From the NCBI RefSeq assembly GCF_053078305.1, contig NZ_CP166879.1: a stretch of 64,000 nt of DNA. The stretch is one strand, 5' to 3'. The position numbers and the translations under genes are program-made. The notes beneath the pieces are model-generated. The model was not told the origin of the DNA. It made no database searches and saw only the letters and a list, made by a program, of their open reading frames with translations. Shown piece by piece: positions 4,015-62,584 of the stretch (positions are counted from its first letter, which is position 1; every line of letters starts with the position of its first letter).

Positions 4015-6810
4015 ATGGAGATAATTATGAGAAACCTCTGTTTCTTACTGACGTTAGTGGCAACTCTGTTGTTCCCCGGGCGGCTGATTGCCGCCGCCTT
4101 ACCGCAGGATGAAAAGTTAATTACCGGGCAACTGGACAATGGCTTGCGATATATGATTTATCCGCATGCTCATCCAAAGGATCAGGTAAATTTATGGCTG
4201 CAAATTCATACCGGTTCATTGCAGGAAGAAGACAATGAGCGCGGCGTGGCTCATTTTGTAGAACATATGATGTTTAACGGCACAAAAACATGGCCGGGTA
4301 ATAAAGTCATCGAAACATTTGAGTTAATGGGCCTGCGTTTTGGTCGCGATGTTAATGCCTATACCAGCTATGACGAAACGGTGTATCAGGTGAGTTTGCC
4401 AACTACGCAGAAACAAAATCTGCAACAAGTGATGGCAATCTTCAGTGAATGGAGTAATGCCGCAACCTTTGAAAAACTCGAAGTAGACGCTGAACGCGGC
4501 GTAATTACTGAGGAATGGCGTGCCCATCAGGATGCGAAATGGCGCACCTCTCAGGCGCGCCGCCCTTTCCTGCTGGCTAATACCCGTAATTTAGACCGTG
4601 AACCTATCGGCCTGATGGATACTGTCGCCACGGTCACACCGGCACAATTGCGCCAATTTTATCAACGCTGGTATCAACCAAATAATATGACCTTTATCGT
4701 GGTTGGCGATATCGACAGTAAAGAAGCGCTGGCGCTGATAAAGGATAATTTAAGTAAGCTTCCGGCTAACAAAGCAGCTGAAAATCGCGTCTGGCCGACA
4801 AAAGCCGAAAACCACCTGCGCTTTAATATCATTAATGATAAAGAAAACCGGGTGAACGGCATCGCACTCTATTATCGCCTGCCAATGGTACAAGTGAACG
4901 ATGAGCAAAGCTTTATCGAACAAGCTGAATGGAGCATGTTAGTTCAGCTGTTCAATCAACGTCTGCAGGAACGTATACAGTCGGGCGAGTTGAAGACTAT
5001 TTCTGGCGGCACTGCGCGCAGCGTTAGAATTGCACCCGATTATCAGTCGCTGTTTTTCCGTGTAAATGCACGAGACGATAATATGCAGGATGCTGCGAAT
5101 GCATTAATGGCAGAGTTGGCAACCATTGATCAGCATGGTTTTTCTGCTGAAGAACTCGATGATGTCAAATCTACCCGCCTCACCTGGCTGAAAAATGCGG
5201 TTGATCAGCAAGCTGAACGTGATTTACGTATGCTGACCAGTCGCCTGGCATCCAGCTCATTAAATAATACGCCGTTCTTGTCGCCGGAAGAGACATATCA
5301 ACTTTCGAAACGTCTGTGGCAGCAAATTACCGTGCAAAGTCTGGCGGAAAAATGGCAGCAGTTAAGAAAGAACCAGGACGCATTTTGGGAGCAAATGGTA
5401 AACAATGAGCTTGCCGCAAAAAAAGCATTGTCTCCTGCGGCTATCCTGGCGCTGGAAAAAGAGTACGCCAACAAAAAGCTGGCGGCTTACATCTTCCCAG
5501 GCAGAAATTTATCGTTAACAGTAGACGCTGACCCACAGGCGGAAATTAGCAGCAAAGAAACGCTGGCTGAGAATCTGACATCATTAACACTTTCCAATGG
5601 TGCCAGGGTTATTCTGGCAAAATCCGCGGGTGAAGAGCAAAAACTACAAATTATTGCCGTATCGAATAAAGGCGATTTAAGTTTCCCTGCGCAGCAAAAA
5701 TCACTTATCGCGCTGGCAAATAAAGCAGTTAGCGGAAGCGGCGTTGGCGAACTCTCCTCTTCCAGCCTGAAACGCTGGAGTGCGGAAAACTCGGTAACCA
5801 TGAGCAGTAAAGTCAGTGGCATGAATACGTTGCTCTCCGTTAGCGCGCGGACTAATAACCCTGAACCTGGTTTTCAGTTGATTAACCAGCGAATCACCCA
5901 CAGCACGATTAACGACAATATTTGGGCATCGCTACAAAATGCTCAAATTCAGGCGTTGAAAACGCTCGACCAGCGTCCAGCGGAGAAATTCGCCCAGCAG
6001 ATGTATGAGACGCGCTATGCTGATGACCGCACGAAATTACTGCAAGAAAATCAGATTGCACAGTTTACTGCCGCAGATGCGCTGGCTGCCGATCGCCAGT
6101 TGTTTTCATCTCCAGCGGATATCACGTTTGTCATTGTCGGTAATGTCGCAGAAGACAAACTCGTGGCGTTAATTACGCGTTACTTAGGATCAATCAAACA
6201 CTCTGATTCGCCATTAGCCGCAGGTAAACCATTAACTCGCGCGACGGACAACGCATCGGTTACTGTAAAGGAACAAAATGAACCTGTGGCACAGGTTTCA
6301 CAGTGGAAGCGTTATGATTCCCGGACACCTGTTAATCTGGCGACGCGTATGGCGCTCGATGCTTTTAACGTCGCACTGGCAAAAGATCTACGCGTTAATA
6401 TTCGTGAACAGGCATCTGGGGCATACAGCGTTTCTTCTCGCCTCTCGGTTGATCCTCAGGCCAAAGATATCAGTCATTTGCTGGCTTTTACTTGTCAACC
6501 AGAACGACATGATGAACTGTTAACGTTAGCGAATGAAGTGATGGTTAAGCGTCTGGCTAAAGGGATCAGTGAGCAAGAACTGAATGAATACCAGCAAAAC
6601 GTTCAGCGCAGCCTCGATATCCAACAGCGTAGCGTTCAACAATTAGCGAACACTATTGTAAATAGTCTTATTCAATATGACGATCCTGCAGCATGGACTG
6701 AGCAGGAGCAATTGTTGAAACAAATGACGGTAGAGAATGTTAACACTGCCGTTAAACAATATCTTTCTCATCCGGTAAATACTTATACTGGAGTATTATT
6801 GCCAAAATAA
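4015..6810 (+). CDS. pqqL: Periplasmic M16-family zinc metallopeptidase
   Basis: 931 aa, signal peptide, inverted zinc-binding motif HFVEHMMFNG; start could be the downstream Met (MRNLCF). Confidence 0.88.
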   Translation: MEIIMRNLCFLLTLVATLLFPGRLIAAALPQDEKLITGQLDNGLRYMIYPHAHPKDQVNLWLQIHTGSLQEEDNERGVAHFVEHMMFNGTKTWPGNKVIETFELMGLRFGRDVNAYTSYDETVYQVSLPTTQKQNLQQVMAIFSEWSNAATFEKLEVDAERGVITEEWRAHQDAKWRTSQARRPFLLANTRNLDREPIGLMDTVATVTPAQLRQFYQRWYQPNNMTFIVVGDIDSKEALALIKDNLSKLPANKAAENRVWPTKAENHLRFNIINDKENRVNGIALYYRLPMVQVNDEQSFIEQAEWSMLVQLFNQRLQERIQSGELKTISGGTARSVRIAPDYQSLFFRVNARDDNMQDAANALMAELATIDQHGFSAEELDDVKSTRLTWLKNAVDQQAERDLRMLTSRLASSSLNNTPFLSPEETYQLSKRLWQQITVQSLAEKWQQLRKNQDAFWEQMVNNELAAKKALSPAAILALEKEYANKKLAAYIFPGRNLSLTVDADPQAEISSKETLAENLTSLTLSNGARVILAKSAGEEQKLQIIAVSNKGDLSFPAQQKSLIALANKAVSGSGVGELSSSSLKRWSAENSVTMSSKVSGMNTLLSVSARTNNPEPGFQLINQRITHSTINDNIWASLQNAQIQALKTLDQRPAEKFAQQMYETRYADDRTKLLQENQIAQFTAADALAADRQLFSSPADITFVIVGNVAEDKLVALITRYLGSIKHSDSPLAAGKPLTRATDNASVTVKEQNEPVAQVSQWKRYDSRTPVNLATRMALDAFNVALAKDLRVNIREQASGAYSVSSRLSVDPQAKDISHLLAFTCQPERHDELLTLANEVMVKRLAKGISEQELNEYQQNVQRSLDIQQRSVQQLANTIVNSLIQYDDPAAWTEQEQLLKQMTVENVNTAVKQYLSHPVNTYTGVLLPK

Positions 6811-6816
6811 TAACAG

Positions 6817-6847
6817 CCCCGTCAACACATCGTTGGCGGGGATTTTA
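6817..6847 (+). terminator. Rho-independent terminator after pqqL
   Basis: Hairpin ccccgtcaac/gttggcgggg (one G-U pair) followed by a T-rich tail. Confidence 0.6.
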
Positions 6848-7072
6848 GCAATATTCGCTATTTTTATGTAATAATTTTATAAATGCGTTCAAAATAATAA
6901 CCAAGTACTAATAGTGATATTTTAAGGTCTGATTTTTACGTGATAATTCAGGAGGCACAGAAAGCGCATAAAAATAACAACATAAAACACCTTACCACCA
7001 CCCAAGAATTCTCTATTGCATTGTTTTTTAATGAAAAAATATTATTTCAACAATATCTCACGATAAATAACA

Positions 7073-7092
7073 TTAGGATTTTGTTATTTAAA
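7073..7092 (+). promoter_or_regulatory. GAD box (GadE/GadX-type activator site) in the gadB promoter
   Basis: Exact 20-mer TTAGGATTTTGTTATTTAAA about 80 bp upstream of the gadB ATG, inside an AT-rich leader. Confidence 0.75.
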
Positions 7093-7171
7093 CACGAGTC
7101 CTTTGCACTTGCTTACTTTATCGATAAATCCTACTTTTTTAATGCGATCCAATCATTTTAAGGAGTTTAAA

Positions 7172-49613: not shown

Positions 49614-50594
49614 CCAGGGCAAGATTACGAAAGCCTTCTCCCCGCAAGGACTGACGCCAGGTAGTTTCTGTCCATGGCTGCTTTTCGCATCTTACGTCTT
49701 AACCCTGCCTTGAATACCTTATCATTCGTCAAAATATTAATAGCAATGTGCCGTATCCCTGAAAATAATTCTGCTGCATTTCCTCTTCTTATTTTGCAGT
49801 CGTCTTCATTCATTACCACGTCCAGACGCCAGTGCAGCTTATTCTCCACGTGCCAGTGGTTTCGGATTGCTGTGGCGAACTTCTCTGCGGTTAAATCAGC
49901 AGAACTGATATAATATCTGACCGTCATTTCTGGCTCTTTCTTTTGTTCTGCTATTATTGAGCGAAATGAGACTGCCATGCATAATTTCTTCAGCCCTTTC
50001 CATTCAAACGTGAAATCAATAAGTTCATCAGGGATATCGCAGACAATATGGAGACGGATTTTAATGACATGAATCGCTCCCCTGCGGCGACTCTTGTCAT
50101 AAGAGTGCCGGAGCGTTTTTCCATCAATTGCAATGACGTCTTTATCATCTGAAGAATGGCAGTCACGCATCCAGTTAATAAAGCACTCGTGAAATTTTGC
50201 AGGACTGATACAGGATACAACTCTGGCAATGGTATCGTGAACAGGAATACCATTTTCAAAATCACCATATTGCTTCAAAAAATCGAGATGTGTTTCCCCA
50301 AAATCCTCTATATCTTCCCAACCTTCTGCACCAGAAACAACGGCACAAATAATCAACAGTAGAATATCCGATAATTTATGTTCCACTTTCCAGGCTTGTC
50401 TGTAATCGGGGATAATAGAAATATGTTCCATCAATTTTTTAAGTTCCATTTTGTTTCCTTAATTATGTAAGGAGTATTTGATCATGTATAAGCAATAAAA
50501 AACAGCTTTAGGTAATGAGGAACATATCAATTTTTAAACATAAAATGCGAATTATTTAGTACAAAAAGTGTACTTCCGATGATCTTTCCCTGCC
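49614..50594 (-). mobile_element. ydcC: H-repeat (ISAs1-family) element copy 1, transposase with internal deletion
   Basis: 274-aa frame (49625..50449) aligns to both ends of the roughly 378-aa H-repeat transposase but lacks about 100 central residues (junction [17 protein letters not shown]). Confidence 0.75.
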
Positions 50595-50862
50595 ATTAAA
50601 TAATGTCTTATTTGACCTTGCCAACATACAACAAAATAATTGAAATATATTCAAAATTAATTTAAACATTCATCAGGCGTCCTTTTCTAAAAAACCTAAT
50701 CATTTAATGGTTAAATTACAATCAAACAAACAAAGTAAACTGGAATTATAGTTGTGGTGCACTTCACGATTTTAGCATTCTTGCTCCTACATTTATACTC
50801 TCTGCCGCGGAAATTTGTTCTCGAAACTTAACTAAACCCAATCAATCATCCTTGCCTTATCG

Positions 50863-51366
50863 TTACTTGAATTTATCAAGACATTTATCATTGCTGACAC
50901 TTTCAATATTTATATGATATACAGTTCCTGTGTTTGAGATATATACTTCCTTAAGCTTATCAGTTTTACTCTCATTATTATAAAAGTAGCCCCCGATAAT
51001 TTTATTCTTCTTTGATATATAAGTGACAGTGTCAGTATGAACTCCACCATTTATTGTCATAATGAATGAGGCATCCAAGTTCATCGTACTTTCCCCCTTA
51101 AAATATATTTTACCATTAGAAATCACTTTGGTCTCAGAAACACCGTTAGGCTCGTCATTACTAATTAATATAAGTAAATCTACCATTTCGGATTTTTTAT
51201 CTCTTTCTTTATAACCACCAATATCATCCAGGATATTATTTGACACTTTTCCACAAAGCATCACTGAGTAATTATTCAAATTTTTGAGTTGAGAGCACTT
51301 TGCCACAAAAGAGAATGAAATAAATATCAAACCTACCGAAATGATTATTGTTTTTTTAAAATTCAT
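50863..51366 (-). CDS. Exported small protein, candidate immunity protein for the upstream effector
   Basis: 167 aa with N-terminal signal peptide MNFKKTIIISVGLIFISFSFVAKCS; 4 bp downstream of the effector stop; about 27% GC. Confidence 0.55.
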   Translation of the reverse strand: MNFKKTIIISVGLIFISFSFVAKCSQLKNLNNYSVMLCGKVSNNILDDIGGYKERDKKSEMVDLLILISNDEPNGVSETKVISNGKIYFKGESTMNLDASFIMTINGGVHTDTVTYISKKNKIIGGYFYNNESKTDKLKEVYISNTGTVYHINIESVSNDKCLDKFK

Positions 51367-51370
51367 TGTT

Positions 51371-53449
51371 TTAAAGAATCCTTATGTAATTAAGTGGAGG
51401 TGTTATTTCATCATTCAATACATACCAAGAATGCTCAAATGCTGGCCAACGCACTAAATCGAAGCCATCTGCTGCTGGGTTTATTCGCCGTGTAACTTCT
51501 CTGGCATCTGACAAACTACATCCTTTATCCGCCCAATAATTAACGCCTAAACTACCACTAGGTGTCAATCGATGGCTTACCATTATGTATTTTTGCTTAC
51601 TTGCCCAAAAGTATCCCCCGGCATCGCAAGAAAAATAGGCATTTTCAACTGGGAGTTGGTTATTGGGTTCTGTAGTAAAAAAATCATCATCTGACGGATT
51701 TCTATACTTTCCATAATTTCTATAATTCTCACGACCAGTTAGATGTATGGTACCTCTGCCTTTAAATCTTGCACCATCACCAACAACATTATTTCCAAGC
51801 TTAAGTCCCTGTTCTGTTCCTGGCTCATACATATCAAAATAACTCGAATCACCATTCTCTATAAAAGACGCAAATCTGCCTGTTTCTCTCGCCATCTGAC
51901 CGAAATAATGCGCAATCCGCAATGGGGTTGTAATTAAGTACTTCCTTAGTGACTTTGACAGTTCATTTTTCAACCCTGCAGGTCTTATCACCTCACCACT
52001 GCTATTTTGTCCTTGGCTAGTAATCCGCTCAATTAGAGTGTCTTTACTTAATGGTCTTGTAAGTTCTGATGTCATGGGATAAGCATTTTGATAACGTCTT
52101 ACCACACTTATAATATCATTTTCTCCTAACCACCCACATTTCCTGAAATGTGCAATAAACTGCCTGGGATCAAAATGCCATACACGCCTGGCAGGTAACG
52201 GATTATCTACCAAACAAAGCGCCTTACAGTGTTCTATCAGCAAATCCAGGTCAGGCTCTGTCATCGGCTTACTCAATACGTCATTGGGTGATTTCAGCCA
52301 CTCAAACCGTGATTCCACGGTGGCGCTGTCCCATTCTAGCGGAAAATGACAAATCATCCGACTTAGGTCATTGCGGGTTGTACACAGGATTGTTGGTGAA
52401 TTGCACTGGCTGTTGGTGTCCGCATCATCGTTCACCAGTTTCCACCCTGTCCAGTGTGGAAAATCACCGTCGCTGTAAACCCTGATATCTCTCGCCCCTA
52501 AGTTAACAACGCCTTTACCCTGTGGCGTATTGATTGTTCGCCACAGCGGCGCATCCGCCGGGACTAATTCTTCATATTCTGTATTAACAACCCGACCAAA
52601 ACGCAGCATCTCATAACCGGCACTTGGGCTTTTCGGATAGAGTTGCAGCGCGTAGGAATAGAGATTGTATTCATAATCCTTACCATCAGCATTAATCAAG
52701 GGAGAACCTACTTCAGTATAGGTATCACTCAGCACTTCATGCTGCTGACGCGTCACCATCGTACAATTGCCTTTATCAAAACTCATTGTGACATACAATG
52801 GCACGCTGGTTCTTTGTACCGGACTGTTGTTCGCAAGCGAGTTTTCTTCCGGCATGTCCCCATAAATCGGTGTTCCGGCAGGGAGATAAAAATGACTATC
52901 ACCGTAAACCACATCAGTTCGTCCATCTTTATTCAGGTCTGTTTCCGGTGATATTCTTCCTGTGATTTTCTGAATGTTTTCATCATCACAAAAAATCTGA
53001 AAATGAAAGGCGTTCTGTCCGTCCACCATCCCTGCTGCACCAACCGGTTCTTTCCGGTATAGCGTGTTTCCCGGCTGCACATTACTGTCAATGCTTCTCA
53101 GGTGCATATATAATGAGTAATAGACGATTTTACCCTCTTCTCCACTACCGATTTCTGTTTCATGTTTTATCAGAACATAGCCTTTATCCGTAACTCCGTT
53201 ATAATTTAACGGAGGAACTGTATTTTCCGCTGGTTCTGGCTGGCGTATTGAAATAACCTTCCCATCGGCAATACACCTAACAGTCTCTGACAGATTGCCG
53301 TTCAAATGAACTCCACCATGCCAAGAACGACCGCTATTCATTGGGAAATTTCTTTCTGGATCAACAGACATCATTCTGTTTACCCAGTCAGAGTCTTTTT
53401 CAGTGTCTATATGCGCATGCAATATTGGAGGGCTGATTATCATTATCAA
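51371..53449 (-). CDS. Candidate T6SS peptidoglycan-hydrolase effector: M23-like domain plus GH19/lysozyme-like C-terminal domain
   Basis: M23-like block HGGVHL…ADGKVIS…YYSLYMHLRS…GAAGMVDGQNAFHFQIF; GH19-like block YFGQMARETG…GDGARFKGRGTIHLTGRENYRNYG; first gene downstream of vgrG. Confidence 0.6.
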   Translation of the reverse strand: MIMIISPPILHAHIDTEKDSDWVNRMMSVDPERNFPMNSGRSWHGGVHLNGNLSETVRCIADGKVISIRQPEPAENTVPPLNYNGVTDKGYVLIKHETEIGSGEEGKIVYYSLYMHLRSIDSNVQPGNTLYRKEPVGAAGMVDGQNAFHFQIFCDDENIQKITGRISPETDLNKDGRTDVVYGDSHFYLPAGTPIYGDMPEENSLANNSPVQRTSVPLYVTMSFDKGNCTMVTRQQHEVLSDTYTEVGSPLINADGKDYEYNLYSYALQLYPKSPSAGYEMLRFGRVVNTEYEELVPADAPLWRTINTPQGKGVVNLGARDIRVYSDGDFPHWTGWKLVNDDADTNSQCNSPTILCTTRNDLSRMICHFPLEWDSATVESRFEWLKSPNDVLSKPMTEPDLDLLIEHCKALCLVDNPLPARRVWHFDPRQFIAHFRKCGWLGENDIISVVRRYQNAYPMTSELTRPLSKDTLIERITSQGQNSSGEVIRPAGLKNELSKSLRKYLITTPLRIAHYFGQMARETGRFASFIENGDSSYFDMYEPGTEQGLKLGNNVVGDGARFKGRGTIHLTGRENYRNYGKYRNPSDDDFFTTEPNNQLPVENAYFSCDAGGYFWASKQKYIMVSHRLTPSGSLGVNYWADKGCSLSDAREVTRRINPAADGFDLVRWPAFEHSWYVLNDEITPPLNYIRIL

Positions 53450-53590: not shown

Positions 53591-55737
53591 CTACGAGAAC
53601 ATGAACTTCACTCTGGTCTCATCATTACCGATATCATCATCAGTATTACTATCCGTATCATTAGTGACTAAAGTGTTCAGGACAGTGGGTTGCAGTGTCG
53701 GTACCGGTGTCCCCGGACTCCCCCCACCATTAAGATTTATCTTCGGCCCCACTATATCCACGCCGCCCGGCTGAATAACGATAAACGAGCCACCCACCTT
53801 CAGGCTTATCCGGCTGCTGCTCTCCAGCACGATATCCCCGTCCACCTTTATCCCCAGCGCGCCACTCACCTTCCTCGCCAGGTCCCCCTTCACCACCAGG
53901 CTGTGTTTCCCCTCCACCAGACTGATATGGTTCCCCGTCGTCTTATGCTCCTGCTTCCCTTCCACCGTCACTTTACGGTCGTTTCTGACGTACAGACCGT
54001 CATCGTGACTCACGCTCACCGTCCGGTCATTCGTCACCTTCAGAGTCTGGTCATTACGTACTGTGATACGCCGGTCGTTCGCCACCGTGATACTCTGGTC
54101 GTGGCCCCCTCTTTTTTTGTACCGACCTGAACCGTCTGGCCCTTCACCACCGTTATCTTCTGGTCGTTACCAATGGTTTCCGTGTGGTCATGCTTCACGT
54201 CCGTCGTCCGGTCGTTGAGCACTTCCGTATCCATGTTCTTCTGCGCATGGATATACACCTGCTCATTACTGGTGGCGTCTTCAAACCGCAGCTCGTTAAA
54301 TCCGCTTCCTTTATAGGTTTTTGACCGGATGGTCATCTGCGTCTTCGTTCCCGGCAGGTCGCCCGGCGAACGGTTGTCCTCATGGTACGTCCGCCCCATG
54401 ATTATCGGCTGGTCCGGGTCGCCGTTCAGGAAGTCCACTATCACCTCCTGACCCACCCGCGGTATCGCCAGATTACCGAACCCCGGCCCCGCCCACGCCT
54501 GCGATACACGCACCCAGCATGAACTCGCCTCCGTCATCCCGTGATAACGGTCCCAGTGGAACTTCACCCGTACCCGGCCATGTTCATCGCAGAAGATTTC
54601 CTCTCCCGCAGGCCCGGTGACAATGGTGCTCTGTGGCCCGTCCACCTTCGGTTTGCTTTGCAGCCGTGGACGCCACGTCCGGTCTGCCGGTATCACCTCT
54701 AACTGATTTCCCAGTGTGGTTCCTCTCCCCTGGCTGCCGTGCAACGCCTGCGGCTGGCTTCCTGACAGTATGCTCTGTACCACCTGCCATTCACGGTTCA
54801 GCATCTTCTGCGGATGCCCCGTCAGCGTAAACCGCGTTCCCGGCCACAGCTTCGGTGAATTACTCTGCCCTGTGGCCTTTTCCGCATCACTGCGCAGGCT
54901 GTCCATCTGATACAGCGTGAAATCCTTGCCGTGCTGCTCATCCTTGAACCTTCCCGGATAATCAAATATCTCGTACTGCGCGTGCTGTCCGTTCAGCCTC
55001 TCACCCTGCTGTTCGTATATCCCCGGCCAGTCCGGCACCTTAAACGTGTAATCCTGACTCTGCACCGACGACGGGCGGACATGCGCCTCATAACGGAACA
55101 TACTGAGACACTCCGTCTCCGCTCCTGCCGATGTGTCCGGGTTAAACGGAAGCTCTCCCGCCTGTGACAGCCCCGCCACATCGTCGCACAGCGTCAGCTT
55201 CTGCTCCGGGCTGTCCGCCGCAAACCGCTCAAAGAAGAAAATCCCCTCCTCCGCCCACAGCCGGGACAGAAACGCCAGGTCGCTCTCTCCGTACTGGACA
55301 CAGAACTCCCGCGCCGGATGGTCCTCATAAAACAGCGGCGTCCACTCCGTGACGCCGTTCTCGTTCAGTAACGTGGCCGATATCGTCCGGATATCCTGCT
55401 GCTGAAAAATACGAAAGTTCTGCCGCAGCCCGCACCGCCATAACGGCGGCTCAATACGCAGGTGATAACGCATCTGCCAGCCGTTGTTCTCCTGCATGCC
55501 AAAGCCCGCCACCACGCCAGTGACATAACGCAGCGGAATGACGCCCTGCCAGATGGTCAGCGTTGCGTTCTTCTCCAGCAGCATCTCCGCCGTCTGCATA
55601 AAAGAGTCGCTGGCAACATCCACACTCATCACAAACGGATAAGACTGGTTCTGGATTAACCTGAAATTCACCACTGCAAAGGTGTCCGGCTCCTGGCCGT
55701 CAACCTCCAGCGTAAAGCGAAGACCTTTTAAGGACAT
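53591..55737 (-). pseudogene. vgrG: vgrG (T6SS spike) copy 1, frameshifted
   Basis: ORFs 54040..55737 and 53591..54085 are consecutive VgrG segments in different frames; shift maps to the C5 run at 54105-54109 (N-frame KKEGATT, C-frame GGHDQSITVANDRR; copy 2 reads KKEGGHDQ). Confidence 0.75.
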
Positions 55738-55755
55738 AAATACCTCTCTGGTATA

Positions 55756-56040
55756 TCAGCCTATATTTACCGTGCCGCCACCAATAACCACGCCGCCGCA
55801 GTCAATGGCATCACCGGTTCTGGCGGCGGGCAGGCCGTCAATAAAGACGGTTGAAGAGCCTCTGGCGATTTTTCGGGGATGAGGTGGATGCTTCGGTTTA
55901 GCATGCGGCGTCGGCGGATCTCCCTGACGGGCTGCGGGGAGACCATCGATAAAAACGGTGGATGACCCGGCGGTGATGACGGTCTCGTAATAACCGTCGT
56001 GCTGAGTGCCTTTGTCGGTGAGTTTGGCTGCTAAAGGCAT
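55756..56040 (-). CDS. PAAR-domain protein (T6SS spike tip), copy 1
   Basis: 94 aa with two GLPAAR(Q/T)GD motifs; 18 bp upstream of vgrG copy 1. Confidence 0.85.
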   Translation of the reverse strand: MPLAAKLTDKGTQHDGYYETVITAGSSTVFIDGLPAARQGDPPTPHAKPKHPPHPRKIARGSSTVFIDGLPAARTGDAIDCGGVVIGGGTVNIG

Positions 56041-56395
56041 AATTCCTCCTGTTCAGAATTTCTACAGCAGCAGGTTTCAAAAATCCGGAGAAATATTCAA
56101 CGAAACATTAATCACTTCACCGGATATTCTGACACGTACCTTCACTAGTCTATTTAAGTAATACAAATTGTTGGCGTGTAATACCCCATTCTCCTTTCAT
56201 TATCTTTGCCTTTAAAACAGAAAGTTCTTGAAATATATATTTAAGGAAAAAACCACGATAAACACCACAAGGATAATATAAATCACCAAGTTATCGAAAA
56301 TTTAAAAAATCACGCGTCAGATCTGATAAAAAATAGGCTATCACATGTAACTCCTGGGCGATCTCGCAAAAATTAAATTATAAAAATACATGACG

Positions 56396-57376
56396 CAGGG
56401 CAAGATTACGAAAACCCGCTCCCCGCAAGGACTGACGTCAGGTAGTTTCTGTCCATGGCTGCTTTTCGCATCTTACGTCTTAACCCTGCCCTGGATACCT
56501 TATCATTCATCAAAATATTAATAGCAATGTGCCGTATCCCTGAAAATAATTCTGCTGCGTTTCCTCTTCTTATTTTGCAGTCGTCTTCATTCATTACCAC
56601 GCCCAGACGCCAGTGCAGCTTATTCTCCACGTACCAGTGGTTTCGGATTGCTGTGGCGAACTTCTCTGCGGTTAAATCAGCAGAACTGATATAATATCTG
56701 ACCGTCATTTTGGGATTTTTCTTTTGTTCTGCTATTATTGAGCGAAATGAGACTGCCATGCATAATTTCTTCAGCCCTTTCCATTCAAACGTGAAATCAA
56801 TAAGTTCATCAGGGATATCGCAGACAATATGGAGACGGATTTTAATGACATGAATCACTCCCCTGCGGCGACTCTTGTCATAAGAGTGCCGGAGCGTTTT
56901 TCCATCAATTGCAATGACGTCTTTATCATCTGAAGAATGGCAGTCACGCATCCAGTTAATAAAGCACTCGTGAAATTTTGCAGGACTGATACAGGATACA
57001 ACACTGGCAATGATATCGTGAACAGGAATACCATTTTCAAAATCACCATATCACTTCAAAACATCGGGATGTGTTTCCCCAAAATCCTCTATATCTCCCA
57101 GTCTTATGCACCAGAAATAACGGCGCAAATAGTTAACAGATAGAATATCTGGCAATTTATGTTCCACTTTCCAGGCTTGCCTGTAATCGGGGATAACAGA
57201 AATATGTTCCATCAATTTTTTAAGTTCCATTTTGTTCTCCTTAATTATGTAAGGGGTATTTGATCATGTGTAAGCAATAAAAAACAGCTTCAGGCAATAA
57301 GGAATATCTCAATTTTCAAACATAAAATGTGAATTATTTAGTACAAAAAGTGTACTTCTGATGATCTTTCCCTGCC
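56396..57376 (-). mobile_element. H-repeat (ISAs1-family) element copy 2, degraded
   Basis: About 93-95% identical to copy 1 over about 980 bp with the same internal deletion junction ([17 protein letters not shown]), plus extra frameshifts splitting the frame (ORFs 56406..56951 and 56855..57049). Confidence 0.75.
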
Positions 57377-57453: not shown

Positions 57454-57933
57454 TTAAAGATTGCCATCTTCATTGCCGACGAAATAAATATCAAATGAAC
57501 ACTCCAATCCAAGATTAGCCATTATTTTCATCTGCTCAGGCCATAAAGTTGGCCCACCGTGCCAATTCAATGATCTCCAGGTACAGTCAATACCCATTGA
57601 AATATTTTCTAATGCTTGCAATTTTGCAATATTTGATGATTTAGGTCCAAGTTTGTGAAGTAGCCAATCCAGATGTTCTCGAATATCTTTCGAGTTCACT
57701 AGATTTTCTGACGAGAGCATCCAATATGAATTTTTTGCATATCTTTTCTTTCCCGATAGAGTAATAATTTCATCTCCTTTTATATTAATTGATGTTGGCT
57801 CAAGTTCTAAGTGAATACTTATTTCATTAGGGTGAGTATTACCTGTGTAAATCAAGAGGCTAGCATAGCACTCATCACAACTTGGATATTCATGAGATAT
57901 CGGGGTAAGCCTTGATTGTATATTCTTAATCAT
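57454..57933 (-). CDS. Candidate immunity protein for the PAAR-like toxin
   Basis: 159 aa, no signal peptide; start overlaps the toxin stop by 4 bp (ATGA). Confidence 0.5.
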   Translation of the reverse strand: MIKNIQSRLTPISHEYPSCDECYASLLIYTGNTHPNEISIHLELEPTSINIKGDEIITLSGKKRYAKNSYWMLSSENLVNSKDIREHLDWLLHKLGPKSSNIAKLQALENISMGIDCTWRSLNWHGGPTLWPEQMKIMANLGLECSFDIYFVGNEDGNL

Positions 57934-59063
57934 AAATAATCCTCTATGTTTCCTAAAATATTTCCTGAGTCATCAATATAATCACCATTATCAAGTATTC
58001 GACCATGGTGATCACCTCGTAAGCGTAAATCTTTTTTCAACTTTTCTAAAGCTTTCCCCCATTCTCTCCTGTTAATATTTTTACCAAAAAATTCATTTAA
58101 CTCCCTGGCAGTTCTTGCCTCAAGAGTATTACCTCCAGTTTGTAATACTCTCGGAACTCTTCCCGCAGCGCCAACGCTTGGAGGAACAGGAATAGGCAAT
58201 CCATTTGCATCCAGCACAATTTTAGCACCGCTCCTCCCCATTCTGCCAACCGATTTTATTGCAAACTTCGCTGAAAACTTGACCAAACCTTTCACCAGTG
58301 CTCCAACCCCGGTCATAAGTTCCAGCCATGGCTCAACCTCCATCGCCATTGCTTGGGTTTCATTGGCAGGTTTCAACAATGGCTCTCTAGGATCAATAGT
58401 TTCCATTACCTCCCTGTTGGTCTCATTCGCCCGCTCCATAATTTGGGTATCCATCCCCAACCCTCTCGCCAGAGCAATATTACTTTCCATTTGGGCAATG
58501 TCATTTTGCATCTGACCTTTGGCAATCAATGCACCCAACATATACCAGCCATTAATAAATGCCTTGCCTAATCCTATCATTGCATCTGCTTCTTGCTTTT
58601 TGGACTCAAGCTCAAACTCTTGCTGTTGTCTTTGCAGTTCCAGATACCTGGCCCAAAGCGATGATTCTTTAACAGGTATTATCTGATTTGGCAGGTTTGT
58701 CTGGGTATACAGTTTTCCAACAGTATTATCATTATTCATGGCAACCAGCGAAAGATTCCTGGCTACCGGCTTTCCCTTGCACTTTATATGATCCACGCCT
58801 GTCAGTATCCGGCAGTCACCGCTGCCCAGACTGGTGCCAGAACTGACACCTTTCCCGGCATTACTTCGTGTACCTGCAATAATACAGTCCACGGTCAGTA
58901 CTGGATTGCCCCGTGCCCTGACATTGCTGATATAAATTTTCTCATGTGTCAGGTCCTGAAAGCTGTCAAACGGCACTATCGCATCACCAACCTTGCAGAC
59001 ATCAGGCGCAATACATATCGCAACGTACTTCGATTCACGACAACCAATATGATTTTCAGCCAT
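57930..59063 (-). CDS. Candidate T6SS effector: N-terminal PAAR-like (DUF4150-type) domain with C-terminal toxin domain of unassigned family
   Basis: N-terminus CRESKYVAICIAPDVCKVGDAIVPFDSF fits the PDVC…P.P(F/Y) PAAR-like pattern; C-terminal 100 aa basic with a DHHG…N…N segment. Confidence 0.55.
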   Translation of the reverse strand: MAENHIGCRESKYVAICIAPDVCKVGDAIVPFDSFQDLTHEKIYISNVRARGNPVLTVDCIIAGTRSNAGKGVSSGTSLGSGDCRILTGVDHIKCKGKPVARNLSLVAMNNDNTVGKLYTQTNLPNQIIPVKESSLWARYLELQRQQQEFELESKKQEADAMIGLGKAFINGWYMLGALIAKGQMQNDIAQMESNIALARGLGMDTQIMERANETNREVMETIDPREPLLKPANETQAMAMEVEPWLELMTGVGALVKGLVKFSAKFAIKSVGRMGRSGAKIVLDANGLPIPVPPSVGAAGRVPRVLQTGGNTLEARTARELNEFFGKNINRREWGKALEKLKKDLRLRGDHHGRILDNGDYIDDSGNILGNIEDYL

Positions 59064-59997
59064 GAGGTCCCCTCTGCTCCGTCGTCAAAACAATACGTTG
59101 TGGAAGAGAATCCACGGGGAGCGTTAAGCGCCAGAGTAGTGTTAGTTGCTCATCGTCTGTGTGGATGGTCAGTGTGTCAGCCAACAATGGGCGCAGTTCT
59201 ACGTTTTTATCAGAGCGGTAAAACAAATACGCCAATAGTCTAATATCTGGAAGGAAACAAATTTGTTCCATTTTAGAAGGTAATAGGCCGTTCAATATAA
59301 TTTTTTCATTGCCAATTAAATAACCATCGTATTGTTGTTCTGGTGGAGAATAATTCATGAATGCAAAATCGAATTCATCTGGATAAAAAGGTTGAACAGT
59401 CTTTTGCCACTGTTCTGTAAAACCTCTGGCATAGCGCAATCGTGAAGGCCAGCTACGGCAAATAGCTCCTGGTGAGGCAGATAACTGTGGAGCTGGACAG
59501 GGCGATTTATCGCCAAGCGTTATCAGGGAGGGAATAACAATGCCTACAGGATTAAATTCACTGGCTGACGCCAGTTCATGGCGTAACAGTACCCGATCAG
59601 TTAATTCAGGTTCGCTAAGTTGCCAGCGGTTAGATATATATTGCCATTGGCAAGGGCCACATATATCAAATTGGCGCTGAAGATTACCAACCTGTAAACT
59701 GGCCTGCCATCGAGTGGTTTCCCCGGTGGCATGCCATGCGTGTCCATTTAATAAAACATCTGCCCTGACTTTTCTGCAAACCAAATCGGTTGCTGTTTTA
59801 AGACTGCTGCTTTCCGGTTCGCCGTACCAGGAGTCGGTCATCAGTGGCAGTCGCTGCTCATCCGCAATCAGACAGAGACCGCCGCTATATGAAAAATCAA
59901 ATGTCTGATTAACTACCACTACTGTGAATAACTCACCATAATATCCCACTTTTTCGAACTGAAAGTGAGGTAAACCAGTTTCATTTTCAATATTCAT
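59056..59997 (-). CDS. Candidate DUF2169-type adaptor protein
   Basis: 313 aa between vgrG and a PAAR-like effector, overlapping the effector start by 8 bp; family assignment is by context and size. Confidence 0.5.
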   Translation of the reverse strand: MNIENETGLPHFQFEKVGYYGELFTVVVVNQTFDFSYSGGLCLIADEQRLPLMTDSWYGEPESSSLKTATDLVCRKVRADVLLNGHAWHATGETTRWQASLQVGNLQRQFDICGPCQWQYISNRWQLSEPELTDRVLLRHELASASEFNPVGIVIPSLITLGDKSPCPAPQLSASPGAICRSWPSRLRYARGFTEQWQKTVQPFYPDEFDFAFMNYSPPEQQYDGYLIGNEKIILNGLLPSKMEQICFLPDIRLLAYLFYRSDKNVELRPLLADTLTIHTDDEQLTLLWRLTLPVDSLPQRIVLTTEQRGPHG

Positions 59998-60012: not shown

Positions 60013-61977
60013 TTAATCCAGATCAATATCTGCGCCGAAAATATTGATTTTATCTTTTCCTTCAATCTGGATACTTTTACCATTGAGAATGATAGTACCG
60101 TCCTTATTCATTTTCAGTAAGCATTCACCGACTTTAATGGTGAGGCTGTTGGTAACTGTCAGGCTGTAATCTTCTCCAACTTTAATATCCTGGGATTTCA
60201 CGACTTCTTCGGTATCTTTTCCTATTATCTTACTGATTTGATCGTTCCCTACATCCTTGTGACGATCGTGGGTAACATCCAGCCGCTGATCGTTTTGTAC
60301 CGTAATGGTCTGGTCATTCGCCACTGTCACTTTCTGGTCATGACCACCTTCCTTTTTGCTCCCCACATTCACCGTCTGGCCCTTCACCACCGTTATCTTC
60401 TGGTCGTTACCAATGGTTTCCGTGTGGTCATGCTTCACGTCCGTCGTCCGGTCATTCAGCACTTCCGTATCCATGTTCTTCTGCGCGTGAATATAGACCT
60501 GTTCCTTATCTGTGGCGTCCTCAAAGCGCAGCTCGTTAAATCCGCTTCCTTTATAGGTCTTCGACCGGATGGTCATTTGTGTCTTCGTTCCCGGCAGGTC
60601 GCCCGGCGAACGGTTGTCTTCATGGTATGTGCGTCCCGTCACAATGGGCTGGTCCGGGTCGCCGTTCAGAAAGTCCACTATCACCTCCTGACCCACACGC
60701 GGTATCGCCAGATTACCGAACCCCGGCCCCGCCCACGCCTGCGATACACGCACCCAGCATGAACTCGCCTCCGTCATCCCGTGATAACGGTCCCAGTGGA
60801 ACTTCACCCGTACCCGGCCATGTTCATCGCAGAAGATTTCCTCTCCCGCAGGCCCGGTGACAATGGCGCTCTGTGGCCCGTCCACCTTCGGTTTGCTTTG
60901 CAGCCGTGGACGCCACGTCCGGTCTGCCGGTATCACCTCTAACTGATTTCCCAGCGTGGTTCCTCTCCCCTGGCTGCCGTGCAGCGCCTGCGGCTGGCTT
61001 CCTGACAGTATGCTCTGTACCACCTGCCATTCACGGTTCAGCATCTTCTGCGGATGCCCCGTCAGCGTAAACCGCGTTCCCGGCCACAGCTTCGGTGAAT
61101 TACTCTGCCCTGTGGCCTTTTCCGCATCACTGCGCAGGCTCTCCATCTGGTACAGCGTGAAATCCTTGCCGTGCTGCTCGTCCTTGAACCTTCCCGGATA
61201 ATCAAATATCTCGTACTGCTCCAGCTGTCCGTTCAGGTTCTCACCCTGCTGCTCATACATCCCCGGCCAGTCCGGCACCTTAAACGTGTAATCCTGGCTC
61301 TGCACCGACGACGGGCGGACATGCGCCTCATAACGGAACATACTGACACACTCCGTCTCCGCTCCTGCCGATGTATCCGGGTTAAACGGAAGCTCCCCCG
61401 CCTGTGACAGCCCCGCCACATCGTCGCACAGCGTCAGCTTCTGCTCCGGGCTGTCCGCCGCAAACCGCTCAAAGAAGAAAATTCCCTCCTCCGCCCACAG
61501 CCGCGCCAGAAACGCCAGGTCCGACTCCCCGTACTGCACACAGAACTCCCGCGCCGGATGGTCCTCATAATACAGCGGCGTCCACTCCGTGACGCCGTTC
61601 TCGTTCAGTAACGTGGCCGATATCGTCCGGATATCCTGCTGCTGGAAGATACGGAAGTTCTGCCGCAGCCCGCACCGCCATAACGGCGGCTCAATACGCA
61701 GGTGATAACGCATCTGCCAGCCGTTATTCTCCTGCATGCCAAAGCCCGCCACCACGCCGGTGACATAACGCAGCGGGATGACGCCCTGCCAGATGGTCAG
61801 CGTCGCCTTCTTCTCCAGCAGCATCTCCGCCGTCTGCATAAAAGAGTCGCTGGCAACATCCACACTCATCACAAACGGATATGACTGGTTCTGGATTAAC
61901 CTGAAATTCACCACTGCAAAGGTGTCCGGCTCCTGGCCGTCAACCTCCAGCGTAAAGCGCAGACCTTTTAAGGACAT
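60013..61977 (-). CDS. vgrG: VgrG (T6SS spike protein), copy 2, intact
   Basis: 654 aa; N-terminal about 545 aa near-identical to copy 1, followed by gp5-like repeats (VTVANDQTITVQNDQRLDVTHD…). Confidence 0.88.
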   Translation of the reverse strand: MSLKGLRFTLEVDGQEPDTFAVVNFRLIQNQSYPFVMSVDVASDSFMQTAEMLLEKKATLTIWQGVIPLRYVTGVVAGFGMQENNGWQMRYHLRIEPPLWRCGLRQNFRIFQQQDIRTISATLLNENGVTEWTPLYYEDHPAREFCVQYGESDLAFLARLWAEEGIFFFERFAADSPEQKLTLCDDVAGLSQAGELPFNPDTSAGAETECVSMFRYEAHVRPSSVQSQDYTFKVPDWPGMYEQQGENLNGQLEQYEIFDYPGRFKDEQHGKDFTLYQMESLRSDAEKATGQSNSPKLWPGTRFTLTGHPQKMLNREWQVVQSILSGSQPQALHGSQGRGTTLGNQLEVIPADRTWRPRLQSKPKVDGPQSAIVTGPAGEEIFCDEHGRVRVKFHWDRYHGMTEASSCWVRVSQAWAGPGFGNLAIPRVGQEVIVDFLNGDPDQPIVTGRTYHEDNRSPGDLPGTKTQMTIRSKTYKGSGFNELRFEDATDKEQVYIHAQKNMDTEVLNDRTTDVKHDHTETIGNDQKITVVKGQTVNVGSKKEGGHDQKVTVANDQTITVQNDQRLDVTHDRHKDVGNDQISKIIGKDTEEVVKSQDIKVGEDYSLTVTNSLTIKVGECLLKMNKDGTIILNGKSIQIEGKDKINIFGADIDLD

Positions 61978-61995
61978 AAATACCTCTCAGACATA

Positions 61996-62280
61996 TCAGC
62001 CTATATTTACCGTACCGCCACCAATGACCACACCACCACAGTCGATGGCATCACCGGTTCTGGCGGCGGGCAGGCCGTCAATAAAGACGGTTGACGAGCC
62101 TCTGGCGATTTTACGGGGATGAGGGGGATGCTTCGGTTTAGCATGCGGCGTCAGCGGATCTCCCTGGCGGGCTGCGGGGAGACCATCGATAAAAACGGTG
62201 GATGACCCGGCGGTGATGACGGTCTCGTAATAACCGTCGTGCTGGGTGCCTTTGTCGGTGAGTTTGGCTGCTAAAGGCAT
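61996..62280 (-). CDS. PAAR-domain protein, copy 2
   Basis: 94 aa, differs from copy 1 by a single residue; 18 bp upstream of vgrG copy 2. Confidence 0.85.
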   Translation of the reverse strand: MPLAAKLTDKGTQHDGYYETVITAGSSTVFIDGLPAARQGDPLTPHAKPKHPPHPRKIARGSSTVFIDGLPAARTGDAIDCGGVVIGGGTVNIG

Positions 62281-62420
62281 AATTCCTCCTGTTAAGAATT
62301 TCTACAGCAGCAGGTTTCAAAAATCCGGAGAAATATTCAACGAAATATTAATCACTTCACCGGATATTCTGATACGTACCTTCACTGGTCTATTTAAGTA
62401 ATACAAATTGTTGGCGTGTA

Positions 62421-62584
62421 TTAAGTTCCATTTTGTTCTCCTTAATTATGTAAGGAGTATTTGATCATGTATAAGCAATAAAAACAGCTTCAGGAAATAA
62501 GGAATATCGCAATTTTTAAACATAAAATGCGAATCGTTCAATACAAAAAAGCAGCGTTGCGTAATCTTTCCCTGATTAAATACG
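62421..62584 (-). repeat. Orphan 5'-end remnant of an H-repeat element
   Basis: About 160 bp matching the 5' terminus and transposase start region of copies 1 and 2 (ttaagttccattttgtt…ctttccctg); no downstream body. Confidence 0.65.

Follow-up and report, generated by a model that had tools for sequence, protein, structure and literature searches.

A probable type VI secretion cargo module with a DUF2169 chaperone, a PIPY effector and a DUF4279 immunity protein on a chimeric vgrG of Escherichia coli

The question addressed here is what is encoded by the three genes that follow an intact vgrG gene in a 64,000-nucleotide stretch of DNA (the window; contig NZ_CP166879.1 of assembly GCF_053078305.1), and how their products might be used by a type VI secretion system (T6SS). 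The DNA of the window is that of Escherichia coli, and the locus is 99.9% identical to that of strain PS10-3. An initial annotation had proposed a DUF2169-like adaptor, a toxin with a PAAR-like motif and an immunity protein, with a canonical PAAR gene on the other side of vgrG providing an alternative spike tip. As described below, the locus is very likely a T6SS cargo module composed of VgrG, a DUF2169 chaperone, a toxin headed by a PIPY (DUF4150) domain, and a DUF4279 immunity protein, with a mechanism deduced from its relatives.

Layout and domains of the three-gene module

In the open reading frame (ORF) listing of the window, three minus-strand ORFs occupy positions 57454-59997, directly 3' of the intact vgrG. 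The features of this region are as follows.

59056-59997, minus strand: DUF2169 chaperone (predicted), 313 amino acids (aa)
59056-59063, minus strand: 8-bp overlap ATGGCTGA of the DUF2169 stop and the effector start
57930-59063, minus strand: predicted specialised effector (PIPY/DUF4150 domain, helical linker and C-terminal toxin), 377 aa
58716-59018, minus strand: PAAR-like (PIPY/DUF4150) domain of the effector, residues 16-116
58254-58658, minus strand: helical linker of the effector, residues ~136-270, helices from an AlphaFold2 (AF2) model, kept together with the PIPY domain
57933-58202, minus strand: putative C-terminal toxin domain of the effector, residues ~288-377, an unnamed polymorphic-toxin family
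57930-57933, minus strand: 4-bp overlap ATGA of the effector stop and the immunity start
57454-57933, minus strand: predicted DUF4279 (FdL-Imm5) immunity protein, 159 aa

The coupling of the three ORFs by 8-bp and 4-bp overlaps, claimed in the initial annotation, was reproduced by the ORF listing at the exact coordinates. Shine-Dalgarno-like purine runs (GGAG, GAGGGGA and GAGGA) lie 6-10 nucleotides 5' of all three starts, and the starts of the three overlapping genes are probably translationally coupled. No further ORFs were found between vgrG and the immunity gene in the ORF listing or in the annotation of the Prokaryotic Genome Annotation Pipeline (PGAP), and the plus-strand ORFs inside 57454-59997 received no support from family searches. 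That the arrangement is not due to chance follows from the Pfam matches of the three proteins (DUF2169, PF09937, E=3.5e-49; Tox-PAAR-like, PF13665, E=2e-10; DUF4279, PF14106, E=2.1e-18) and from the same order of chaperone, effector and immunity genes in Rahnella, where the protein identities are 58%, 57% and 55%, respectively.

The 313-aa protein, previously taken for a DUF2169 adaptor from its size and position, matches PF09937 over its full length (residues 25-290; model positions 6-294 of 294). This is its sole Pfam match, and a pentapeptide-repeat extension is absent. A weak sequence match (E=2.8e-5) is to 8VTH, a solved structure of a DUF2169 protein. The gene is situated between vgrG on its upstream side and the PF13665 gene on its downstream side, and partner genes for DUF6484, thiolase-like or DUF3540 proteins are absent between vgrG and the immunity gene. 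PGAP names the product "DUF2169 family type VI secretion system accessory protein", and by its domain content it is predicted to be a single-domain chaperone of the TvpA/Tap2 type.

The effector is distinctly modular. Its N-terminal domain is matched by PF13665 (formerly DUF4150) at model positions 3-108 of 108, whereas in the same Pfam scan no canonical PAAR family was matched in the 377-aa protein even at E<=10. The PAAR-like (DUF4150-type) motif recognised earlier at its beginning, IAPDVCKVGDAIVPFDSF, corresponds to residues 18-35, and the domain is accordingly PAAR-like of the non-canonical kind; PGAP uses the name "PAAR-like domain-containing protein". With both the DUF2169 and the PAAR-like profiles matched, the proposed identities of the two proteins stood. 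The full-length AF2 model of the effector, calculated from a 29-sequence alignment, contains linker helices at residues 136-201, 207-222 and 245-270, with predicted local distance difference test (pLDDT) values of ~82-94 over residues 141-240 and of 55-65 for the last helix. A Kyte-Doolittle scan of the effector revealed no hydrophobic segment of transmembrane grade. Translocation by a transmembrane domain, as in the prePAAR/Eag effectors, was considered and discarded, given that no 19-residue window had a mean above ~1.5 and that the linker is an amphipathic helix.

The PIPY domain and linker together are common to 37 relatives, mostly from the Enterobacterales, which are 70-85% identical to the effector in the PIPY domain and 40-65% identical in the linker. 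These relatives carry at least 10 unrelated C-termini, some of which are the Pfam toxin domains PF14021, PF15532 and PF02195, and those with another toxin also have another downstream gene. The conserved PIPY domain and linker are one delivery module with swappable C-termini, which is classic polymorphic-toxin behaviour. In Rahnella (locus L003, 3241-7396), a second PAAR-like effector, fused to Tle3 and accompanied by Tli3, is located 3' of the orthologous cassette. A 313-aa protein in the chaperone position precedes this Tle3 effector; it displays no Pfam match and no BLASTP similarity to DUF2169, and may belong to a different adaptor family.

Sachar et al. (2025, PMC11883445) showed that genes for DUF2169 proteins are found together with vgrG and DUF4150 genes. 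In that study DUF4150 was renamed "PIPY" after its P(I/V)P(Y/F) motif, PIPY domains were found to need a DUF2169 partner for a working spike tip, and the minimal vgrG-DUF2169-PIPY arrangement was termed "synteny type B". In a 2026 EMBO J report (PMC13373197) this minimal arrangement is named "Class I Tvp", and Agrobacterium Tap2/Tde2 serves as its model. Since its parts are precisely these, without additional accessory genes, the module is very likely a synteny type B or Class I Tvp T6SS cargo module, the simplest DUF2169 type. The architecture was correctly described in the initial annotation as one known for loading specialised toxins onto VgrG.

By analogy with these systems, the DUF2169 protein would bind the PIPY domain in the cytoplasm of the producer and shield its hydrophobic face. 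The PIPY domain would then cap the blunt end of the VgrG trimer, with the cassette-specific last ~100 VgrG residues supplying the matching tip. Upon firing of the T6SS the chaperone would stay behind, and the ~90-residue toxin would be carried into a neighbouring bacterium. Sibling cells would be protected through the binding of the toxin by the DUF4279 protein.

Several observations weigh against this assignment. The effector motif reads I-V-P-F, with the first proline of P(I/V)P(Y/F) replaced by isoleucine; its relatives have PVPF, LVPF or AVPF at the same position. The PIPY region of the AF2 model (residues 1-120) is of low confidence, with pLDDT values of 28-60, and the PAAR-like fold is therefore assigned from the Pfam match only. 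Promoter and terminator scans of the module gave results at chance level. No family was returned by Pfam for the toxin part of the whole effector or for 30 diverse members carrying the toxin domain, sequence and profile searches of the PDB produced no match to the domain, and a Foldseek search of the toxin model against the PDB gave a best E of 2.9 and no solved-fold match. No papers citing the RefSeq accessions of the effector, and no experiment on the E. coli effector, were found. A working T6SS of the source genome cannot be seen from the window. Finally, the frameshift in the neighbouring vgrG copy 1 and the flanking ISAs1 elements point to some decay nearby.

The architecture itself is nothing new, for it is a textbook-type DUF2169/PIPY module that is so labelled in RefSeq. 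What remains of interest is an uncharacterised toxin family with DUF4279 immunity and the question of PAAR versus PIPY posed by a chimeric vgrG.

The chimeric vgrG and the question of two tips

The PAAR and vgrG genes that precede the module have the following features.

61996-62280, minus strand: canonical T6SS PAAR gene, 94 aa, matched over its full length by NF033420 (E=5.5e-47)
60013-61977, minus strand: intact vgrG copy 2, chimeric, 654 aa, TIGR03361 (E=1.4e-180)
60312-62420, no strand assigned: duplicated "head" of the module, consisting of ~140 bp of upstream DNA, the PAAR gene and vgrG codons 1 to ~555
60013-60311, minus strand: cassette-specific VgrG beta-helix tail and tip, ending in ...KINIFGADIDLD, without a counterpart in vgrG copy 1

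The head at 60312-62420 and the DNA at 54073-56180 share 95.3% identity over 2,112 bp, and the PAAR protein encoded at 61996-62280 differs from that encoded at 55756-56040 by one amino acid (P43L). Past the breakpoint the two vgrG genes are unrelated, the protein identity of copy 2 to copy 1 being lost after residue ~545. The GC fraction is 0.55-0.61 in the duplicated head versus 0.39-0.49 downstream. The tail of the VgrG is 65% identical to that of the Rahnella VgrG, and over its last ~50 residues the identity to the VgrGs of three further loci with DUF2169/PIPY cassettes is 74-82%, whereas over the first 250 residues of VgrG it is just 38-48% in two of those three. In these three loci, all from other genera, the cassette lies in or beside the main T6SS gene cluster, in two of them directly after hcp, and no canonical PAAR gene was found within 9 kb of the VgrG-tip/DUF2169/PIPY cassette.

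In the vgrG of E. coli, a native PAAR-vgrG head is joined to an imported cassette that encodes tip, chaperone, effector and immunity protein. This chimeric make-up follows from the duplication of the head, the dissimilarity of the tail to copy 1, the drop in GC and the retention of the tail with the cassette in other genera. These sequence comparisons indicate that the PIPY effector is the partner matched to, and linked with, the VgrG tip across genera, and the cassette-specific tail is presumed to be the docking site for the PIPY domain. The stop of homology within vgrG at codon ~555 looks like a recombination handle for swaps of cargo cassettes. Cassettes of VgrG tip, chaperone, effector and immunity protein exchanged on a conserved PAAR-vgrG head would be a route by which the T6SS arsenal of E. 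coli is diversified.

As stated in the initial annotation, a canonical PAAR gene precedes this vgrG (NF033420, 157.8 bits versus a cut-off of 124), and two tips are thus literally encoded. It is a further step to suppose that one VgrG is capped alternately by PAAR, as a plain spike, or by the PIPY effector, as a toxin-loaded one, to give two firing modes, and this is considered doubtful. The genes for PAAR and for the PIPY effector are both intact and flank the same vgrG, and PAAR-vgrG heads precede every module of the island, that of strain LF82 included. The upstream PAAR protein, however, is one residue away from a PAAR protein that precedes a VgrG with a wholly different C-terminus, and hence it is unlikely to be matched to the tip of copy 2. 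Moreover, the other three genera manage the same VgrG-tip/DUF2169/PIPY cassette with no PAAR gene in that 9-kb span, DUF2169 genes are rarely near PAAR genes according to Sachar et al. (PMC11883445), and the two tips would have to compete for a single binding site. The locus provides a natural test of whether PAAR and PIPY tips can compete for one VgrG.

The predicted C-terminal toxin domain and its immunity protein

The payload of the module is a very small domain that is widely distributed among bacteria and their delivery systems and that has neither a name nor a relative of known fold. In the AF2 model it is well defined, with pLDDT values of 86-97 and a beta-alpha-alpha-beta-beta-beta topology. 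The domain is ~90 residues long and basic, with an isoelectric point (pI) of 8.7, and the following residues are invariant or nearly so (full-length numbering): Q308, T318, N323, R333, W335, E340, K343 and H353. The family comprises 465 representative clusters at 50% identity. It is found almost always at the extreme C-terminus, in proteins of up to 3,822 aa. Its scaffolds include Rhs proteins, a protein of 3,822 aa that contains eCIS_core and ART domains and, from the annotation of the AlphaFold database (AFDB), DUF637, Hint/intein, pre-toxin TG and glycine zipper proteins; in Cedecea it is encoded by an orphan ORF that lies 3' of a cdiA-type gene. In one 854-aa protein (P0146) the domain is internal (residues 190-261), truncated (profile positions 7-77) and followed by Rhs-like sequence, an arrangement that looks like a recombination scar and not a working toxin.

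Searches of NCBIfam, PADLOC and PHROGs for the identity of the toxin were negative or uninformative. When the model was compared with AFDB50 using Foldseek, only unannotated family members and weak structural neighbours were retrieved. One such neighbour is a stand-alone DUF2188 protein of ~75 aa (E=3e-3, 28% identity, template-modelling score 0.62), and several others are unannotated proteins of ~70 aa from Methylobacterium and the Burkholderia group. DUF2188 has been tied by others to defence operons and is itself uncharacterised; for this reason the lead was dropped. Within E. coli, no swapping of the toxin at this locus was seen by megablast against the complete genomes.

The third protein of the module, for which PGAP gives the name "DUF4279 domain-containing protein", has no signal peptide, hydrophobic N-terminus or transmembrane segment and a pI of 5.6; it is predicted to be cytoplasmic. 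A DUF4279 gene is positioned directly 3' of the toxin domain in the window itself and in all seven of the contexts that were looked up and are on record (an eighth protein had no record). Whatever the scaffold, the gene usually overlaps the stop of the toxin or starts within a few bases of it. DUF4279 has been described as the polymorphic-toxin immunity family FdL-Imm5 (PMC9424270), and it is also treated as an immunity family in PMC13304343. From this constant pairing with the toxin domain and the published family, the DUF4279 protein is predicted to be the cognate immunity protein of the C-terminal toxin, and the toxin and immunity module that had been recognised from the layout of the genes is upheld. 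In another locus (L012, 10793-11116), a 107-aa DUF4279 fragment is found 3' of a PIPY effector that has a different toxin and its own small downstream gene; the fragment resembles the remnant of an immunity gene that was orphaned when the toxin was replaced.

The toxin is most likely an enzyme acting in the target cytoplasm, as suggested by an immunity protein lacking a signal peptide and transmembrane segments and by the small size and basic character of the toxin and its many invariant polar residues. Its substrate is perhaps nucleic acid, which is the best guess at present. A more specific proposal, that the toxin is a divergent Ntox33, a predicted nuclease/RNase family, appears unlikely. 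Ntox33 has been reported to be paired with DUF4279 in a Salmonella Rhs effector (PMC13304343), it is likewise a small alpha+beta domain of unknown fold, and immunity proteins of the FdL type are partners of BECR RNases and of Ntox33. The Pfam model of Ntox33 (PF15533), however, did not match the E. coli protein at E<=10 or any of the 30 family members at E<=0.1, and the Ntox33 motifs [DN]xHxxK and DxxxD do not map onto the invariant residues of the toxin family. On these grounds Ntox33 identity as such, which had been considered for the DUF4279 link, was rejected.

A joint reading of the toxin and of the chimeric vgrG is put forward only tentatively. It would make residues ~288-377 the founding E. 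coli representative of a polymorphic-toxin family that is widespread but so far undescribed (the 465 clusters at 50% identity, on T6SS PIPY/Rhs, CdiA-type, Hint/intein, pre-toxin-TG and eCIS-type scaffolds) with a fold lacking a solved relative and an activity outside the known toxin chemistries, always neutralised by DUF4279. Along with it, a foreign VgrG-tip/DUF2169/PIPY cassette would have been grafted onto a native PAAR-vgrG head, yielding a VgrG that can be capped by PAAR or PIPY. E. coli strains such as LF82 would be a convenient place in which to work out both the toxin and its DUF4279 immunity.

Genomic setting and comparison with known systems

The module resides on an island between yncG and pptA, an interval that we take to be the rhsE locus of the K-12 map. 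The neighbouring elements of the island are listed below.

62421-62582, 57220-57376 and 50439-50602: three copies of a ~80-160-bp repeat at the module borders, by ISAs1 (H-repeat)
56406-57230: ISAs1-family transposase between the two modules, degenerate, with a 181-aa ORF; a frameshift and an internal stop according to PGAP
53591-55737: vgrG copy 1, frameshifted, in two ORFs ("frameshifted" in PGAP)
51371-53449: gene for an intact 692-aa protein, an M23 family metallopeptidase according to PGAP, following vgrG copy 1
50863-51366: 167-aa ORF with a hydrophobic N-terminus, following the M23 gene
49625-50449: distal ISAs1-family transposase, 274-aa ORF

Of 5,426 complete genomes, ~120 contain the whole locus with an identity of >=99%, among them those of the adherent-invasive E. 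coli strains LF82 and NRG857c. All of the module genes are intact in both carriers inspected (PS10-3 and LF82), in which domain-level RefSeq annotation of these genes is already present. In another ~1,700 genomes the matches are partial and confined to a ~75-bp repeat that adjoins ISAs1 elements. LF82, like most of the other carriers, has an ISEc40 element just 3' of the DUF4279 gene (6131-7155 of the LF82 excerpt L002), and in LF82 it interrupts no gene. Strain LF82 has a T6SS-1 cluster (PMC9860674), and thus at least one carrier possesses the secretion machine.

Another proposal, in which the module would be a silent relic on an orphan island that is caught between insertion sequences and no longer expressed or fired, is quite improbable. 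Copies of ISAs1 flank it, one of them degenerate, the adjacent vgrG copy is frameshifted, the locus is present in just ~2% of the complete genomes, and no promoter rose above chance level. Against this, all five genes (PAAR, vgrG, DUF2169, effector and immunity) are intact, the locus has been maintained at that high identity across the ~120 genomes, the coupled starts are retained, and the ISEc40 insertion in LF82 lies outside the genes. The weakest proposal, that the third gene is some other accessory or unrelated gene, can be set aside: in Pfam DUF4279 still counts as a "domain of unknown function", with an immunity role predicted from sequence, but it follows the toxin domain in 7/7 contexts regardless of the delivery scaffold, the downstream gene changes when relatives carry another toxin, its start is ATGA-coupled to the effector stop, and the protein is acidic versus a basic toxin.

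With respect to the rest of the island, the 167-aa ORF is likely, from its hydrophobic N-terminus and position, a periplasmic immunity protein, and together with the M23 protein it would constitute an effector pair left without its own spike. The border repeat holds a conserved hairpin-like CTCCTTAATTATGTAAGG(G/A)G; its ~75-bp core is present in ~1,700 genomes of E. coli, in some cases next to RHS genes, and no transposase adjoins the copy at 62421-62582. The second island module in LF82 (591-4925 of L002) is unlike that of the window and encodes a PAAR protein, an 801-aa VgrG, an M35 peptidase and a hypothetical protein.

Among the systems that have been studied, that of Agrobacterium tumefaciens consists of VgrG2, Tap2 (Atu3641, DUF2169), Tde2 (a DUF4150-DNase) and Tdi2 (PMC13373197; Bondage et al. 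2016 as cited there). The E. coli module resembles it in the order of vgrG, single-domain DUF2169 gene, DUF4150-headed effector and immunity gene, and in having no extra genes of the TvpB/C/D type. Whereas Tde2 is a DNase, the E. coli toxin domain is unnamed and its immunity protein belongs to DUF4279. Further differences of the E. coli cassette are its status as an orphan island, the canonical PAAR gene that precedes it and the chimeric nature of its vgrG.

In the synteny type B clusters and in the systems of Vibrio parahaemolyticus (VP1398/VP1415) and Pseudomonas aeruginosa (PA0097/Tse7), a DUF2169 gene likewise lies next to those for a PIPY protein and VgrG (PMC11883445), and the E. coli effector has the region of the PIPY motif. 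The studied Vibrio and Pseudomonas systems, however, are of the more complex type A or Class II, and the E. coli locus departs from the systems of that paper in its IVPF motif and in its adjacent PAAR gene, which the paper finds to be rare.

The enterobacterial effectors TseV1-3 of Salmonella bongori combine a PAAR-like domain with VRR-Nuc (PMC9635880). They are also DUF4150-headed, and genes for orphan VgrGs and for DUF2169 adaptors are likewise present in the S. bongori genome. The first 252 residues of the E. coli effector align with the N-terminus of 8qjc, the S. bongori Rhs effector A464_2174 (E=1.4e-15), which points to a PIPY-linker delivery module shared with that protein (bioRxiv 10.1101/2024.02.26.582050). 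The S. bongori payloads, in contrast, are a VRR-Nuc nuclease or an Rhs cage with a putative RNase, and their immunity proteins belong to DUF3396. Lastly, although the E. coli toxin fails the Ntox33 Pfam model and motifs and would be delivered by a PIPY protein and not by PAAR-Rhs, its locus resembles that of the Rhs-Ntox33/DUF4279 pair of Salmonella SPI-19 (PMC13304343), in which a small C-terminal alpha+beta toxin, delivered through a T6SS, is likewise followed directly by a DUF4279 gene.

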